A stretch of 20,000 nucleotides of DNA from an uncultured virus (IMG/VR IMGVR_UViG_3300010049_000003) (IMGVR_UViG_3300010049_000003), one strand, 5' to 3'. Shown: positions 1,678-8,638, numbered from the stretch's first letter. Notes: generated by a model from the letters alone, not told the origin. Translations and numbers: made by a program.

Positions 1678-2202
1678 TCACTCGGCAGCAGGGGCCGGGG
1701 CGGCCTTGGCGGCTGCACGGGAGGCCTTGCGGGCGGCCTTGGCGTCAGCGCGGGCCTGGGCCACCCCCGCGCGCTGCGCGCCACGGATGAGGTTGCCCAG
1801 GTTCATGCGCTGCATGCCCGGGTTGAGGTGCCCGTAGCGGCTCTTGAGGCTCGTGACCGTGAAGCCCAGGGCGCGGGCGGCTTCCGAGTAGGTCTGGTCG
1901 AGCGTGTTGCCCGCGAGCGCCTTGGCGACCTTGTCGCCATTGTGCAGGCTGACGTTGCCGTTGGCCGTCTTGTGGCGGGTGTACTCAGAAACGTCCGCCA
2001 CGGTGCCCGCGATTGAGCGGTGCGTGATGTTGGCGGTAGGCAGCGGGCGCGTGTTGACGACGCGACCCTTGTCGGCCTTCGCCGCCTTGGCGGGCTTGCG
2101 GGCACGGGGAGCGCGAGGGGCAGGGGCGGCAGGCAGCACGGCAGCCTCGACGGCGGCAGGGGCGGCGACCACGGGGGCGGAGACGGTGTTGGTGTCGTTC
2201 AC
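1678..2202 (-). CDS. Phage early protein with Ala/Pro/Lys-rich tails and a YGHLNPGMQRMNLGN core
   Basis: GTG start with AAGGA SD, strong GC3 bias, and histone-like low-complexity termini around a globular core. Confidence 0.8.
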   Translation of the reverse strand: MNDTNTVSAPVVAAPAAVEAAVLPAAPAPRAPRARKPAKAAKADKGRVVNTRPLPTANITHRSIAGTVADVSEYTRHKTANGNVSLHNGDKVAKALAGNTLDQTYSEAARALGFTVTSLKSRYGHLNPGMQRMNLGNLIRGAQRAGVAQARADAKAARKASRAAAKAAPAPAAE

Positions 2203-2275
2203 GTGTCAGTATCCTTTATTTCGGCGGGGTGGCGGACCCCGGGACCGGTGGCCAGAATTCCCGACCACAGAAGAT

Positions 2276-2304
2276 ATTGTAACACAGCCGGGGGCTGCAC
2301 ACAA
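2276..2304 (-). promoter_or_regulatory. Sigma70-type early promoter for the leftward operon
   Basis: Minus strand -35 TTGTGT (2304-2299), 17-bp spacer, extended -10 TG-T-TACAAT (2281-2276), about 70 nt upstream of the 2202 start. Confidence 0.7.
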
Positions 2305-2376
2305 GTATTCTGTGCGGCTCCGGCTGCAGACGGGCAAGGCGGCTGCCGCGCACCGGAGAGAGGACCGCGCACGCGC

Positions 2377-2471
2377 GCGTTAGCACAGCCGGAGGCTCGG
2401 CACAAGTCCCCCCAAGCACACCTCGAGCTTCGGCACAAGTCCCCCCAAGCACAGCCGGGGCACGGCGTCAA
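2377..2471. repeat. Three tandem 33-bp-period units, including a perfect 24-bp direct repeat
   Basis: TCGGCACAAGTCCCCCCAAGCACA occurs at 2397-2420 and 2430-2453. Minus-strand TTGnnn-N12-TGTGC units have their hexamers at 2400-2405, 2433-2438 and 2466-2471. Confidence 0.85.
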
Positions 2472-2473
2472 GA

Positions 2474-2489
2474 CTGTACGGGCATACAG
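2474..2489. promoter_or_regulatory. LexA (SOS) box, Beta/Gammaproteobacteria type
   Basis: ACTGTACGGGCATACAGTA matches CTGT-N8-ACAG with consensus-like flanks. A near copy, ATGTACGGGCGTACAGT, lies at 2784-2800. Confidence 0.6.
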
Positions 2490-2521
2490 TACCTGGGGCG
2501 CACGAGACGTGCAGCACGCCG

Positions 2522-2536
2522 GCAAGAAACGTGCCA
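2522..2536 (-). promoter_or_regulatory. Sigma54 -24/-12 element 1
   Basis: Minus strand TGGCACGTTTCTTGC matches TGGCAC-N5-TTGC. Confidence 0.75.
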
Positions 2537-2694
2537 CGTCACGGGAGACAGCGGGAAGCCCAGGAAGAGGCGCAGGAGGGGATAGCTACTAAGGTAGCGG
2601 GCAGGGCACGCGAGAGGCAGGGAAGACACGGGAGAAGACCGATTCCTGCCTAGGCAAAGATCGACACGCACAGGCAAACCAGGCTGTCAAGTAC

Positions 2695-2709
2695 GCAAGA
2701 GACGTGCCA
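2695..2709 (-). promoter_or_regulatory. Sigma54 -24/-12 element 2
   Basis: Minus strand (C)TGGCACGTCTCTTGC. Confidence 0.75.
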
Positions 2710-2763
2710 GGGTTGCAGGAGGAAACGCCGGGAAACCCCGGGGAACGCGCACGCACGAGCACA

Positions 2764-2779
2764 TGCAAGAAGCGTGCCA
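2764..2779 (-). promoter_or_regulatory. Sigma54 -24/-12 element 3
   Basis: Minus strand (C)TGGCACGCTTCTTGCA, full consensus. Confidence 0.8.
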
Positions 2780-3147
2780 GGGCATGTACGGGCGTACAGT
2801 GTGCACGCGGGTTGCGAGAGGGGACAGAAGACCAAGGGGACCAGCTACACAGCGAAAACGCGAACCCGACCGTGGGAACGGTGACGCCACAGGGGGGAGA
2901 GCTGCGAGACCCCACAAAAAACACACGGAAAAGCGAGCGCCGTTCCCGGTTCGGCCACCAATTACCTGCCCCCGGTGTGAGGGGAGCAGTGGACCGTGGA
3001 CGGTCCTCCTGGTCTTCTGATTCTCTGTCCCCTCCGAGGTGCACACCGACCCCCCCCCCGTCAACGGGCGAACACCCCCCTGCTGCACGCCGGCGACCCT
3101 TGACACGGGCAAAGCGCGCATGATGGAATTCGCGCCGACGGTGGGAG

Positions 3148-3163
3148 CGTTCCACGTGAAACC
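3148..3163. promoter_or_regulatory. parS-like site (14/16 match)
   Basis: CGTTCCACGTGAAACC compared with the chromosomal parS consensus TGTTNCACGTGAAACA. Confidence 0.65.
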
Positions 3164-3251
3164 TCGAGGCGACGGGAAGAGGGACGTGCGAAGGGGCCAA
3201 TTGGAAATGCGCAGTGCAGGAAGGCTAGCGGGCAAGGATCAGAGCGCAAGT

Positions 3252-3267
3252 TGGCACGAAGCTTGCA
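3252..3267 (+). promoter_or_regulatory. Sigma54 -24/-12 element 4 (rightward)
   Basis: (T)TGGCACGAAGCTTGCA, full consensus, oriented toward the rightward operon. Confidence 0.8.
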
Positions 3268-3380
3268 CGGGGCAGGGGCAAGGCAGCGACTGTCCCGGCC
3301 GGGCGATTTGCCTGTTGCTCTCTTGTCTCTGCAGCTTGGTTGCGGCGGCGCAGGGGCGGCGTGGGTCGTAGGGCTTTTTT

Positions 3381-3396
3381 TGTTCCACGTGAAACA
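3381..3396. promoter_or_regulatory. Perfect chromosomal-type parS site
   Basis: TGTTCCACGTGAAACA, a 16/16 match to TGTTNCACGTGAAACA. Confidence 0.85.
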
Positions 3397-3508
3397 ACCA
3401 AAAGGGAGAAATACTAGATGCCAACCCCAAAGGACCCCGAGACGAAAAAAGAAACGCCGGGTCCTCGCCTACTGTTTTTGGCTCCGGAGTCCGTTGGAGC
3501 ATCTACAT

Positions 3509-3925
3509 ATGCATACATGTGAGATATTGGAACTGGATGGACCGCCTGTTGCCGCGTTTATATTGCCCGGTATTGATGGGTATGTTGCCATACGGTACAA
3601 GATCGTCAAGTTTCTGGGCAGTTTCGAAGAGTGTCAGCGGGCACAGGAAAGGTTCCAGCATGCCATCCGGGCAGATTTGAGGGATGCCACTCTCAGGTTT
3701 GAGACATCGGACGATTTCATAGTAGCCGATGGGAAGAAATTCTTTCCGCACGTGCAGCCTATCATATGGTGGCGGCATCGTCCGGAAGTTGAAGTATATG
3801 ATGATTATTGCTGTTTGTACGCGCGGTTTGATACTACTCCACCGTTGCTGAGTAAGTTCTGGGAGAAGTGGCATTGCGAGGAAGGATTGCCGCCGCGAGG
3901 AGTGAAAGAAGTTTTAACAACCTGA
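3509..3925 (+). CDS. Hypothetical protein (138 aa)
   Basis: GGAG SD before ATG 3509 and globular composition. The upstream part of the track ORF (3251-3508) overlaps regulatory sites. Confidence 0.7.
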   Translation: MHTCEILELDGPPVAAFILPGIDGYVAIRYKIVKFLGSFEECQRAQERFQHAIRADLRDATLRFETSDDFIVADGKKFFPHVQPIIWWRHRPEVEVYDDYCCLYARFDTTPPLLSKFWEKWHCEEGLPPRGVKEVLTT

Positions 3926-4527: not shown

Positions 4528-4748
4528 GAGCAGCTATTATCGCTGTAGCATTCATGTTTGTGGCCCTGTCGGCCTGCGAGACCCTGGATCGGCTGCACAG
4601 TGCGCCAAAGGAGCTGGTCCTGGCTTGCGTGCTGGAGATGCGGGTAAGTGGTGAGCGCCCATGGCCAAATCTCGGGCCGCGCTGTGCACAGTTAAGCGAT
4701 TATATTCACAACCACGGATGGCCCGGGGATGACTCCGGCCACTACTAG
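4524..4748 (+). CDS. Lipoprotein (74 aa), possibly spanin-like or exclusion protein
   Basis: Signal peptide MRAAIIAVAFMFVA with lipobox LSA-C, two further Cys, and an ATGA overlap. Confidence 0.75.
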   Translation: MRAAIIAVAFMFVALSACETLDRLHSAPKELVLACVLEMRVSGERPWPNLGPRCAQLSDYIHNHGWPGDDSGHY

Positions 4749-4755
4749 GAGTTAT

Positions 4756-4950
4756 ATGAAAACTTTCCTGATTTTATCGGTGCTGCTGGTGGGTCCTGCC
4801 GTTGCAGACCCCCTGGTAGTGTTATCCCATGACAAGGAGCCACGAAGGCAGCAACAGGCGGTTTCCGTCCCTGAGCCACATGGCCTAGCGTCGGCGGCAT
4901 TGCTAGCATTGGGTGTCGTCGGCATCTGGTATTCAAGGAGGCGGTCATGA
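4756..4950 (+). CDS. Minimal PEP-CTERM sorting-signal protein (64 aa)
   Basis: AGGAG SD; signal peptide MKTFLILSVLLVGPAVA; about 20 residues; then VPEP, a TM helix and RRRS. Confidence 0.8.
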   Translation: MKTFLILSVLLVGPAVADPLVVLSHDKEPRRQQQAVSVPEPHGLASAALLALGVVGIWYSRRRS

Positions 4951-5540
4951 GATACCTGCTACTTGCCTTGTTGCCGCTGGTGGCGCAGGCAGCCCCCTGT
5001 CCGACTCAGACAGATGTTGCCATGGTGGTGACCCCCGGCTTTTCCTGTAACGAGGGGGATAAAACCTTCTCGGATTTTATGGTGTCCGATGCGCCGATGG
5101 GGGCGGCCATACTGTTCGAGCCCACTGGGGCGAAGACGTTCCTGCTGTCGCTGTCGCGGGACGGGAATCTGTTCGAGCCCGGGAAAGTACAGTTTGATTA
5201 TACGGTTACGGCTACTAGTGCCAGCATAACCCTGGGAACCGTCGGGGTGGACGTGCCGACCATCGATCCGGATGTTATAACCGTAAGCTCGATGAATGGT
5301 ATGGTCCTGGAGCCGAAGACCTTAATCAATGGTGGCACGGCTAGCATCGAGTTTCATCCGCCGGTGCAGAGTGTTGAGGTGACAAACTCGTCGGTCGTTC
5401 TGAATGGTGACGTCCTCACCAGCATCAGCAATACTTTCACACAGGTTCCAGTGTCAGTACCTGAGCCTGCATCCCTCGGCCTGATGGCGCTCGGGCTCGG
5501 GGGGCTATTGGCCATGCGCCGTAAAGGAGTCGCACGATGA
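4947..5540 (+). CDS. PEP-CTERM surface protein (197 aa)
   Basis: Signal peptide ending AQA, Ser/Thr-rich beta-type body with C...CxxGDKTFSDF, and C-terminal VPEPASLGLMALGLGGLLAMRRK. Confidence 0.9.
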   Translation: MRYLLLALLPLVAQAAPCPTQTDVAMVVTPGFSCNEGDKTFSDFMVSDAPMGAAILFEPTGAKTFLLSLSRDGNLFEPGKVQFDYTVTATSASITLGTVGVDVPTIDPDVITVSSMNGMVLEPKTLINGGTASIEFHPPVQSVEVTNSSVVLNGDVLTSISNTFTQVPVSVPEPASLGLMALGLGGLLAMRRKGVAR

Positions 5541-5761: not shown

Positions 5762-5778
5762 TCTTATCCTTACCAGAC

Positions 5779-5849
5779 GGGACGGGTTGGTACAGGCCAG
5801 TTACTCTCGCCCAGTAGCCTGCCTGAGGGTTCGACTCCCTCCTGTCCCA
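5779..5849 (+). tRNA. Non-canonical tRNA-like gene (nominal anticodon CGC)
   Basis: Acceptor GGGACGG/CTGTCCC plus A; perfect T-arm GAGGG-TTCGACT-CCCTC; 3-bp D-stem; anticodon arm TTACT-CTCGCCC-AGTAG; no CCA. Confidence 0.6.
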
Positions 5850-5863
5850 TTGGCCCTTCTTCT

Positions 5864-5936
5864 GGCCAGGTAGCTCAGATGGTAGAGCGGGAGGGTGAAG
5901 TACTTCGCGACGGTGGTTCGATTCCGCCCCTGGCCA
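5864..5936 (+). tRNA. tRNA-Phe(GAA)-like gene with a deviant anticodon arm
   Basis: GGCCAGG-TA-GCTC-AGATGGTA-GAGC-G-GGAGG-GTGAAGT-ACTTC-GCGAC-GGTGG-TTCGATT-CCGCC-CCTGGCC-A; no encoded CCA. Confidence 0.85.
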
Positions 5937-6100
5937 TTACGAAAAAGCCTCGGGGGTTATGCAAGAATTGCCGGTGGTCAGAGCCCATCATACACAAAAC
6001 GGATATCTTATCCTGCCACCGCTATCCGCCTGCGCGCAGGGGGCAGCCGTGGCCGGTTGTAAAGTTAAGCGATTTCTGTGGTGAGTACCAAAGTAGCTGA
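5879..6100 (+). CDS. Small 4-Cys phage protein (CxxC...CHRYPP...WPxV...CGE); start uncertain
   Basis: The four-Cys motif pattern resembles a recurrent small phage family. The nearest in-frame ATG is 5879, inside the tRNA. Confidence 0.6.
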   Translation: MVEREGEVLRDGGSIPPLAITKKPRGLCKNCRWSEPIIHKTDILSCHRYPPARRGQPWPVVKLSDFCGEYQSS

Positions 6101-6110
6101 CGGAGGATCG

Positions 6111-6365
6111 ATGGCGAAACCTAAAGAAAAATTTAGAATTCCGGGACCCCCGGGGCCGATGGGCCCTGCGGGAAGCAGTGAGAATACCGACAAGCTGATT
6201 GACCAGATGCTGCGCGCCCTCGAGGTACAGGCAGTGGTCATTAATGCCCTGAGTCACGCTATAGAGGCGCTGGACGCGCACTCACAGCATGATAAGGATG
6301 AAGAAGATGATGACGAGGAGGATGGGGAAGAAGGAGAGGATAAAGAAGAGCATGAGGAAGACTGA
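6111..6365 (+). CDS. Hypothetical protein (84 aa) with a short collagen-like segment, a helix and a highly acidic tail
   Basis: GGAGG SD; GPPGPMGPAG; DKDEEDDDEEDGEEGEDKEEHEED; stop overlaps the TerS ATG. Confidence 0.75.
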   Translation: MAKPKEKFRIPGPPGPMGPAGSSENTDKLIDQMLRALEVQAVVINALSHAIEALDAHSQHDKDEEDDDEEDGEEGEDKEEHEED

Positions 6366-6778
6366 TGCCACGTGCTATTGAAGTCATCGTACCGCGCCGG
6401 GACTTTCACCCTACGGACGAGATCCGTGAGGCAGTAGCAAAGATGGTTGCCTGCGGGTTGGATGAACTTGATATAGCGTTCTTCTTGAAGATCGAGCCGC
6501 TCGATGTGCGCCGGGTGTTCCGGGACGAGTTGCGGCATGGCACCGCCTACTTCATTGGTAAGGTAGGTGGTGCCATGATCGATTCCGCCCTGCGTGGGGA
6601 TGTAAATGCCCAACGGGCTTTCCTGCAGATGCGGGGCCGCTGGGCAGCTCCCACGCGCGCGGAGGCAGATGACAATACTGCACAACAGGACGTGGATAGT
6701 AAGCGTAGGCTGATGAATAGCATTATAGATATGGTGGAAGCCAAGGTTGAACCCCCGAAGGAGAAGGTGCGCAGATGA
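6365..6778 (+). CDS. terS: Terminase small subunit (putative)
   Basis: HTH-like N-terminus, an F-x-x-EL-x-x-G...A-x-x-GDVNA-x-x-x-FL-x-x-R-x-x-W pattern, and position upstream of TerL. Confidence 0.75.
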   Translation: MPRAIEVIVPRRDFHPTDEIREAVAKMVACGLDELDIAFFLKIEPLDVRRVFRDELRHGTAYFIGKVGGAMIDSALRGDVNAQRAFLQMRGRWAAPTRAEADDNTAQQDVDSKRRLMNSIIDMVEAKVEPPKEKVRR

Positions 6779-7057: not shown

Positions 7058-8638
7058 ATGAGTCTACGGTTTTCCAGTCCGTTCGACGATCCCGGTGCGA
7101 GCCTCCACGACCGTCTAGCGGCGTTGTCAACGCAGGAACTGGCCCTGCTGGAATGGCGCATGCGATGGAAAAAGCAGGGCCGTCCCAAGCAGCATCCCCC
7201 TGCCTGGGCCTGGGATACCTGGGGCATAATGTCGGGGCGCGGTTTCGGCAAAACGCTTACAGGGTCCCATTGGGGAAGTATCCTGGCGTGCCTCAATCCC
7301 GGGACGTTTGGGGCTGTGATTGCCCCGACGTTGGACGATGCCCGCTACACGAACTTTGAGGGCCCGACCGGGATCGTCACCATTACTCCTCCAGGGCTGA
7401 TAACCGACTACAATAAGTCCGACCTGATCTTGTATTATTGGAACGGCTCGATGATTCGTGGTTTCGGGTCAGAAAAGCCAGACAGGCTGCGCGGGCCACA
7501 GCATCACTGGGTATGGGGAGATGAGGTTGCCGCCTGGGAGTATGCAGAAGACACCTGGGATATGATGGAGTTTGGGCTGCGCCTCGGTGACGAGCCCCAG
7601 ATAATGTGGACGACTACTCCCAAGCCCTTGCCGATCGTAAAGATGCTGGTTGCACAGTGTGCGCGGGACCCGCAGCGGCATGTGCTGGTTACAGGTAGCA
7701 CCGACGAGAACCGCGAAAATCTCACGAAGCGTTTCTACGAGCGTGTTGCCCGCTACCGGGGCACCAAGATAGGCCGACAGGAGCTTGAGGGCGAGCTGAT
7801 TGACCTCGAGGAATCGGGAATAGTACAGAGGAGTCAGTTCCGGCTGTGGCCGTATGACGACCCGCTGCCCCATTTCGTGCACATAGTGCTGTCATTAGAT
7901 TCTGCCTATACTGAGAAGACCTTTGATCCCCGCAGAAAGGAGCCTGACCCATCAGCGTGTGTGATTTTTGGGCTGTTTGACATCAAAGAAGTATATCATG
8001 TAATGATCCTTGACGTGTGGCGGCGCTGGCTGGGCCTGCCTGACCTGATTAAGAGGGTCAAGCATGAATTCAACAAGACCTGGGGACAGATTGATGTGCC
8101 CCTACTGCAGAAAACCGTTATTCCCAGTCGATGGACTGGCAACGCCGTGGCCTCCGGAAAAGGAATCGACGTCCTGCTTATCGAAGATAAGGGTTCCGGC
8201 ATATCTCTACGACAATCCTTGTCAATGGAAAATATATTCATGGAGCCATACAACCCTGGACGTGCTGACAAACTGGCCCGAATGCATGCCATTACGCCTA
8301 TGGTTGCTCATGGGCGGGTGTGGGTACCGGAAAGTGGCAAACGTCCGGGACATATCGTAGACTGGCTCGAGACCGAATATGAAGATGAGAACCCGGAGTT
8401 TGATCCGGATCGGGCACAGCCGGGATTTATTCCCGAGGTGTGCACCTTCCATGGGCCCGGGACGACGACCCACGACGATTATGTAGATGCTTTTTCCCAG
8501 GGGCTGAGATATTTCATGCATAAATTTGTGCTGACATTTGTGACCGGATACTCGGAGGAAGAGCGGTTGCAGATGTTGCAGGAAGATGAGAAGATCCGGG
8601 CAGAGCATGGGCGACATTATAATCCATATGCGGCTTAG
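7058..8638 (+). CDS. terL: Terminase large subunit
   Basis: Walker A GRGFGKT, LRGPQ, Walker B WGDE, coupling motif TTTP, and RNase H-like nuclease residues (SLDSA, IEDK, HDDYVDA). Confidence 0.96.
   Translation: MSLRFSSPFDDPGASLHDRLAALSTQELALLEWRMRWKKQGRPKQHPPAWAWDTWGIMSGRGFGKTLTGSHWGSILACLNPGTFGAVIAPTLDDARYTNFEGPTGIVTITPPGLITDYNKSDLILYYWNGSMIRGFGSEKPDRLRGPQHHWVWGDEVAAWEYAEDTWDMMEFGLRLGDEPQIMWTTTPKPLPIVKMLVAQCARDPQRHVLVTGSTDENRENLTKRFYERVARYRGTKIGRQELEGELIDLEESGIVQRSQFRLWPYDDPLPHFVHIVLSLDSAYTEKTFDPRRKEPDPSACVIFGLFDIKEVYHVMILDVWRRWLGLPDLIKRVKHEFNKTWGQIDVPLLQKTVIPSRWTGNAVASGKGIDVLLIEDKGSGISLRQSLSMENIFMEPYNPGRADKLARMHAITPMVAHGRVWVPESGKRPGHIVDWLETEYEDENPEFDPDRAQPGFIPEVCTFHGPGTTTHDDYVDAFSQGLRYFMHKFVLTFVTGYSEEERLQMLQEDEKIRAEHGRHYNPYAA

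Follow-up and report, generated by a model that had tools for sequence, protein, structure and literature searches.

A cluster of predicted sigma54 sites in a gene-free gap, the likely genome end, of an uncultured phage, and its recurrence in unrelated tailed phages

What does a phage do with a gene-free gap between its diverging early and late arms in which consensus sites for several host proteins are gathered? The window analyzed here (20,000 nt) is the final 20 kb of a 64,015-nt contig, IMGVR_UViG_3300010049_000003, and was detected in termite-gut metagenome runs. Because the first 100 bases of the contig recur at its end, it represents a complete circle of ~63.9 kb (63,892 nt). The minus-strand arm carries small early genes, a primase, SNF2 and UvrD helicases, a family A polymerase, a PurZ-like synthetase and an HD dATPase, and the opposite (plus, late) arm carries TerL, a GroES-like gene, and capsid and tail genes. 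The arms diverge at a gap of 1,215 nt (Table 1), for which a first-pass annotation had proposed an integrated switch that reads host state, with the remark that it may also be the genome end.

Table 1. Features in and around the gap, in window coordinates
Feature	Position	Strand	Basis
First early gene, phrog_8941 (function unknown in PHROGs; 3 paralogs in genome)	1678..2202	-	Profile match
Gene-free gap between diverging arms; presumed to hold genome end or terminal-repeat boundary	2203..3417		Codon model, composition, RW homology
Predicted sigma70 early promoter, TTGTGT-17-TACAAT, extended -10	2276..2304	-	Sequence, by eye
Three decayed 33-nt promoter copies (-35 kept, -10 lost)	2377..2471	-	Repeat family D1
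LexA-type box CTGT-N8-ACAG, single in genome	2474..2489		Pattern; Beta/Gamma-type palindrome
T-poor, purine-rich top strand (T 7%)	2500..2940	+	Base composition
Predicted sigma54 site 1, -24/-12 consensus, toward early genes	2522..2536	-	Sequence
Predicted sigma54 site 2, toward early genes	2695..2709	-	Sequence
Predicted sigma54 site 3, toward early genes	2765..2779	-	Sequence
LexA-type box copy, one mismatch, 4 nt upstream of sigma54 site 3	2784..2799		Repeat D9
Long imperfect inverted repeat, arms ~2818-2842 and 3002-3034	2818..3034		Repeats I4, I20
parS-like palindrome 1, 14-bp core of the chromosomal-type 16-bp palindrome	3148..3163		Repeat D12, pattern
Predicted sigma54 site 4, toward late genes	3252..3266	+	Sequence
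parS palindrome 2, full chromosomal type, 16/16 to the consensus pattern	3381..3396		Pattern
34-codon ORF, strong Shine-Dalgarno; likely first late-arm gene	3418..3522	+	Too short for homology search
Candidate small terminase	6365..6778	+	Position; phrog_12540 (unknown function); putative identity
Large terminase (TerL)	7058..8638	+	PHROGs/Pfam matches

The first-pass annotation held that the gap contains no credible ORF, is GC-rich and has a T-poor top strand over about 2500-2940, and all three statements agree with our results. ORFs lying mostly within the gap score negatively on the phage's own codon model, six gap ORFs and an ORF at 3251-3925 have no Pfam match, and for the longest gap ORF (2589-3200, minus strand) the sole match among 430 candidates was its own gene-caller product. 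Base 3273 is missing from the IMG/VR copy L004 and from all five of the runs covering that position, so long ORFs that cross it are broken. Codon scores, the Pfam and homolog searches and the missing base together rule out a coding region, and the right-hand limit of the gap was moved to 3417 because the 34-codon ORF begins at the next base. GC content is 63.8% in the gap vs 54.8% in the genome, and the T content of 7.0% over 2500-2940 is the lowest of 12,780 441-nt windows on both strands. A pyrimidine-rich stretch and a C10 run near 3050-3060 lie downstream of the T-poor stretch; a T/A strand skew as a general trait of the arrays described below was ruled out (mean 0.015 over 122 loci). No Rfam family matched the gap at E up to 1. 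A terminator before 3418 was also ruled out, as terminator-like counts equal those of shuffles and 3278-3420 folds no better than shuffles. In a DNA search of the gap against cultured phages, the phrog_8941 gene was the only one among the 20 of 46 matches listed.

Four classes of host-protein sites had been said to co-occur in the gap. The sigma54, parS and LexA-type sites stand, and the sigma70 class is the weakest, a tool scan of the gap having found no sigma70 promoter. We searched with consensus patterns for sigma54, parS and LexA and used 3000 dinucleotide shuffles of the gap as control. Four strict sigma54 sites were observed (shuffle mean 0.007; 0 of 3000 shuffles), together with two parS sites (0 of 3000) and one LexA-type box, which occurs in 44 of 3000 shuffles when counted as 8 fixed bases and in none as 12 fixed bases. 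Across the 63,892 nt of the genome, all four strict sigma54 sites, both parS sites and the sole CTGT-N8-ACAG fall within these 1,215 nt; a relaxed sigma54 pattern adds one further site, in a structural gene. These counts support the gap motifs as non-random host-factor consensus sites. The sigma54 consensus is YTGGCAYR-N4-TTGCW, and all four sites match TGGCACG-N4-TTGC, with the -24 GG and -12 GC at fixed spacing. They are 70-490 nt apart and are all directed outward to the genes.

The remaining elements are less regular. The LexA-type box at 2474-2489 adjoins the -35 of a promoter copy that has lost its -10; the intact promoter lies 170 nt downstream, and the box neither overlaps nor abuts a working promoter. 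The extended -10 pattern of that promoter, written after the site had been seen, occurs in 1 of 3000 shuffles, and the two TTGACA hexamers in the gap both have poor -10 boxes. The inverted repeat lies between the left- and right-pointing sigma54 sites and is a candidate end or processing signal (fold z -2.93, in a window chosen after seeing the repeat). Patterns for IHF and PrsR were not found in the gap, and parS itself is the only match of NifA type; a host activator recognizing some other sequence may still act here. On the minus strand outside the gap, a three-hairpin intergenic stretch lies past the first early gene (1575-1680; fold z -2.65), and a second promoter in TGTG-YTA style lies upstream of a 69-aa early gene (1150-1180).

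Among 64 phage proteins compared with PHROGs and Pfam, a set that leaves several small ORFs aside, there was no match to a repressor, Cro or integrase, so that the divergent promoters have none of these genes beside them as a temperate lysis-lysogeny region would. No match to ParA was found in the phage proteins, and there is no plasmid-type ParA/ParB pair. In the last late-arm protein (794 aa, G000:C1:24831-27215+), residues 593-657 weakly resemble ParB; with no ParA and this stretch alone, host ParB is implied for the parS sites. The sigma54 activator domain PF00158 and the sigma54 DNA-binding domain PF04552 gave no match in any of the 50 records searched, this genome included, and a phage-encoded sigma54 or activator was rejected on that basis. 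Two tRNA genes (Ala-CGC, Phe-GAA) precede the terminase genes at 5775-5937, a region over which Rfam gave weak, sub-threshold Y-RNA-like overlaps.

Judging from gene content, the genome is probably of the Z (2-aminoadenine) type and combined with an RW-like virion module. The PurZ-like synthetase gene lies between those for the HD dATP triphosphohydrolase, assigned to phrog_7076, and the family A polymerase (PolA), both adjoining it as in Z-genome gene clusters (G000:C1:27139-31099; L002:13139-13789-, L003:128-3099-). The top PDB match of the synthetase is PurZ 7odx (E 2e-50), and a Ser stands at the position of the 7odx GSTGKG motif. The phrog_8941 family, of which the first early gene is one of three paralogs (the others at G000:C1:39297-39803- and 41227-41814-), marks PurA/PurZ-family phages, being present in 28 of 32 records and in all 16 near-complete ones, as well as in phiVC8 and ZP6. 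Its NPGMQRMN motif is invariant, the structure model (pLDDT 82) consists of a hairpin and four helices, and a sequence search of the PDB gave no match; we regard it as a candidate Z-genome accessory protein. By capsid and terminase, the closest cultured phages are the Caulobacter RW phages of the Riverwalk cluster (MCP 74%, TerL 46% identical). The RW record shares the divergent layout and lacks the sigma54 motif, as does that of phiVC8, which shares the PurZ-like gene and phrog_8941. The exact parS pattern is likewise absent from the RW and phiVC8 records.

Three genes have PEP-CTERM-type tails (window 4729-4950+, 4947-5540+ and G000:C1:34563-34982-), two of them matching PF07589 and one called by eye, and one sits inside the replication arm; no exosortase was matched in the phage. 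The first-pass suggestion of a Beta/Gammaproteobacterial host with exosortase is plausible on the two Pfam PEP-CTERM matches and the LexA box type. The available text of PMC1569441 describes PEP-CTERM genes as a sigma54-regulated class in hosts, and TTTACA, the end of the activator motif given there, is absent from the gap.

To assess how widely such sites occur, we queried IMG/VR for two strict sigma54 sites 8-38 nt apart, a query that conditions the pair spacing to 23-53 nt. This tandem pattern was found at 122 loci in 22 of the 64 parts of the collection (~350 estimated overall), vs none for the reversed pattern in the whole collection. Triple arrays account for 16 of the 122 loci, compared with two matches in 596 Gb of prokaryote genomes. 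One of these GTDB arrays (L351:2991-3080) is a tandem repeat of 25 bp in Virgisporangium, and the other (L352:3019-3086) lies at a contig end in a Gemmatimonadota MAG. Among 292 sites from 88 lineage clusters, the unqueried -1 position is a pyrimidine in 250 (background 47%) and the unqueried position after TTGC is A/T in 252 (background 49%), and 100 of 155 one-mismatch neighbours are altered at the Y or R position alone. This recovery of the sigma54 consensus at positions outside the query is the main evidence for host sigma54 as the binder. Up to 25 sites occur in one record, some genomes have sites scattered over several kb, and the array-bearing lineages span 21 TerL clusters and a GC range of 35-67%. 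The sigma54 cluster is the general feature, recurring in many unrelated phages; a tie to Z genomes was ruled out, as PF00709 is present in 3 of 46 array-selected records.

The arrays are strongly biased in position. In a survey of 80 long-flank loci, for which 100 of the 106 ORFs of at least 330 aa were sent to PHROGs (the six left out belong to the near-duplicates L112, L129 and L131), TerL lies within 4 kb in 37. The array is upstream of TerL in 35 of these, inside it in one and downstream in one, and upstream in 19 of the 21 TerL clusters at 50% identity; arrays with 8-10 sites adjoin terminase genes. The sites themselves point toward TerL in 47 cases and away from it in 76. Arrays within 300 nt of a contig end number 23 of 122, vs 5.0 expected, an excess that assembly breaks at repeats may partly explain. 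Packing is dense: 50 of 196 same-strand neighbours are spaced 26-28 nt apart (the query required 23-53 nt), and 36 of 38 close convergent pairs overlap, with offsets of 18-22. Given footprint sizes, sigma54 sites that are packed at 26-28 nt or overlap cannot all serve as promoters simultaneously, so many of the sites in other phages are too crowded, or overlap head to head, for independent promoters.

Does the gap of this phage hold a genome end? The RW record has an exact terminal redundancy of 2,940 bp that ends in the corresponding divergent gap, between gp009c and gp010, so the position here is homologous to the recorded end of a relative; the available text of PMC11053796 gives no account of how the RW end was chosen. 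The assembled contigs of the runs show no joints or end piles. Those of runs X3 and X4 stop at 2909 and that of X4 resumes at 3039; since contigs of X1 and X2 cross the gap, at flat depth, the hole at 2909-3039 proves nothing, and the crossing itself counts against an end in the gap. From the RW boundary and the position of arrays upstream of terminase genes, the genome end probably lies in the gap, and the first-pass remark to this effect is its best-supported part.

Cultured phages give further indications. An array query against cultured phage records returned Vibrio (301), Pseudomonas (44), Bacillus (6) and Listeria (1), with weak E-values; TerL searches for cultured array phages gave distant matches only, and one other array query a single chance match. 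Pakpunaviruses carry two sigma54 clusters. In Ab02, six of nine sites lie in the two copies of a 1,165-bp repeat, a terminal repeat defined from read peaks (PMC4482731, available part), and three lie ~12 kb inside. In phiPsa347, one site lies in each copy of the annotated 522-bp DTR and two lie elsewhere. In Pakpunaviruses the sites remain with the packaging end although it lies at a distance from the terminase gene, evidence against simple terminase promoters. Vibrio phage D419 has five sites within 4 kb, beside genes annotated as DNA binding and DNA transfer protein, a region we read as T5-like pre-early DNA; T5 has no strict sites and pVp-1 has three. PAK_P3 has two sites, at 50798 and 50946, ~8 kb from the Ab03 end and by homology outside its 771-bp repeat. 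In the accessible start-site table of PMC10914365, no start is listed between 48439 and 51049, those expected from the sites being near 50786 and 50972, a silence that concerns two sites in one phage under one condition and a high calling threshold. The sigma70 promoter ~90 nt downstream of these sites does have a listed start.

Persistence of the motifs in relatives, proposed earlier as a check, is partial. A search with the first early gene gave 77 loci, and one with TerL in IMG/VR recovered this phage alone. The sigma54 motif is present in 12 of the 32 uncultured relative records searched whole, with clusters of 2-7 in six (the reversed control gave 2 matches), and is absent from the other 20; the 12 annotated phage records chosen as relatives, RW and phiVC8 among them, all lack it as well. 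In L005, the cluster is flanked on one side by a TerL 51% identical to that of this phage and on the other by the same first early gene, and L065, L075 and L217 resemble this layout by ORF size and position only. With many relatives, T5 and YuA (no match to the strict pattern) lacking it, the motif is dispensable. Six of 52 records contain the exact parS core, and L033, L050 and L053 have parS-like sites inside TerL. LexA-type boxes were found in 16 of the 52 records vs 7 in the control; one clade has the box over an extended -10 element, with no sigma54 cluster nearby, and boxes over -10-like elements were seen in several PurZ-family lineages (L018:1121, L045:1051, L010:7742, L047:4923). Near the sigma54 arrays of the 122 other loci, LexA boxes are not enriched (1 vs 2 in the control), and the box looks like a lineage-specific add-on. 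By a count over one of the 64 IMG/VR parts, ~9,500 viral stretches are estimated to have the full 16-bp chromosomal-type parS, some in 3-5 copies.

The reading we prefer, which we place a little short of an even chance, is that the gap is the likely genome end and that its predicted sigma54 sites dock a silent, closed host RNA polymerase that serves as a landmark of the DNA end and not as a promoter. Host sigma54 very probably binds the sites, to judge by the consensus. It seems reasonably likely that, without an activator, the complexes would stay closed and the early genes be read from the sigma70 promoter. Sigma54 holoenzyme is described as binding inactively without its activator (PMC4591121, available text). 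In the weakest step, drawn by analogy, the parked polymerase might mark the end, or open it in part, so that terminase can load or the terminal repeat can form, or alternatively hold the entering end, and the parS sites would bring host ParB to that DNA end. For phage T4, the part of PMC3012670 available to us reports that the late sigma gp55 aids terminase loading. The passage from docking to end handling is something we infer, and internal clusters and the many site-free relatives count against a required role; the three internal Ab02 sites and the PAK_P3 pair, which are away from ends, also speak against an end landmark. The broader proposition, that unrelated tailed phages have repeatedly evolved sigma54 clusters at the packaging end, borrowing stalled sigma54-RNA polymerase as a non-transcribing cofactor of end processing, packaging or entry, with ParB and LexA sites added here in a probable Z genome, we consider doubtful as a whole.

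The wide spacing and outward direction of the gap sites suit promoters and count against docking. Conditional promoters could form a switch in which a host enhancer-binding protein fires the three leftward sites and the one rightward site in some states, LexA holds down early transcription until DNA damage occurs, and the waiting genome, in a carrier state as in phi29, is segregated by ParB. Such a switch would agree with the LexA-type boxes over the -10 of promoter-like sites in PurZ-family relatives and with the co-occurrence of parS and sigma54 sites above control, with 13 parS sites vs 0 near sigma54 arrays (in 5 loci, perhaps two lineages) and 9 sigma54 sites vs 0 near 128 parS loci. It also has precedents in the parS and Spo0A sites of phi29 (PMC2731898), the phage use of LexA and CtrA (PMC9437464) and the sigma54-like YuA promoter, as far as the available texts go. 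We nevertheless hold it to be unlikely: no activator was matched, the gap has no IHF or PrsR motif, arrays elsewhere overlap convergently or are packed at 26 nt, and no starts are listed at the PAK_P3 pair. The integrated switch of the first-pass annotation is borne out in its host-factor sites and in the lack of any repressor, integrase or sigma54 activator match. As one switch joining four signals it is unsupported, because the LexA box is off the intact promoter and is not enriched near arrays elsewhere.

The motif might be bound by a phage protein, the small terminase or phrog_8941, with the likeness to sigma54 incidental; pac and cos signals usually lie upstream of terminase, as the arrays do. 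This is very improbable, as a motif with the degeneracy of sigma54 recurs over the 21 TerL clusters and their GC range, phages with phrog_8941 mostly lack it, and the 50 records contain no RpoN-like DNA-binding domain. Quite improbable, too, is an insulator or local polymerase store, with closed complexes blocking read-through over the end junction or feeding core polymerase to the first sigma70 early promoter. In this phage as in PAK_P3, the sites do lie just upstream of the first sigma70-type promoter of the early cassette, and Pakpunavirus clusters bracket that cassette, but the dense arrays of 8-10 sites beside terminase genes would be left unexplained. The sites might instead act as decoys, hundreds of which would after replication titrate away host sigma54 or the holoenzyme and switch off envelope stress, pili/flagella and PEP-CTERM/EPS programmes. 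The indifference to orientation, the dense packing, records with as many as 25 sites, the lack of an activator, the near absence of triple arrays from cellular genomes and the PEP-CTERM genes of the phage itself would all suit this role. A decoy fits site density and not position, since it does not need the packaging end to which the sites are so strongly biased, and the four sites here are few vs the >250 estimated in E. coli (PMC4591121, available text); we rate it rather unlikely.

Returning to the docking of closed polymerase at the genome end, several known systems offer partial likenesses. An RNA polymerase pause in packaging is found in T7. The coupling of gp55 to terminase in T4 (PMC3012670, available part), in which transcription machinery is a landmark for terminase, is the basis of our analogy; in T4 and T7 the factors are phage-encoded, whereas here a closed complex of host sigma54 is proposed. 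Bacterial sigma54 promoters and the inactive E. coli sites seen by ChIP-seq (PMC4591121, available text) have the same consensus, including its degenerate positions, and binding without transcription is known there; here, in contrast, the sites form clusters in phage DNA, at the packaging end or close to it, and no activator gene was matched. The lytic Bacillus phage phi29 (PMC2731898, available text) likewise has host-factor sites, parS (Spo0J) and Spo0A, near early and late promoters, but these are for other host factors, and its regulator boxes act on adjoining promoters. The LexA box here, in contrast, is 170 nt off the intact promoter, and no sporulation context is known for this phage. 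Phages under LexA control, such as GIL01, and CtrA-dependent lytic deferment (PMC9437464, accessible part) also use host sites without a phage repressor; the single perfect LexA box here differs in that relatives with sigma54 clusters do not keep it at this position. The P015 element of YuA (PMC10914365, available text) is a phage element assigned to sigma54, but a single active promoter.

Host-factor sites in lytic phages are known for a few regulators. Our literature search, which covered titles and the starts of abstracts, found no paper describing sigma54 arrays at phage ends, and phage-specific, end-tied arrays of this kind were not met with; the YuA promoter was the only phage sigma54 element encountered (bioRxiv 10.1101/2023.10.13.562163, available part). 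The cultured Pakpunaviruses, with sites in mapped terminal repeats, are a ready test system. If the sites act without transcription, phages would be exploiting a structural role of sigma54-RNA polymerase, and the rpoN status of the host would influence how much phage is produced. In uncultured phages, the motif may also serve to flag genome ends and hosts that have sigma54.
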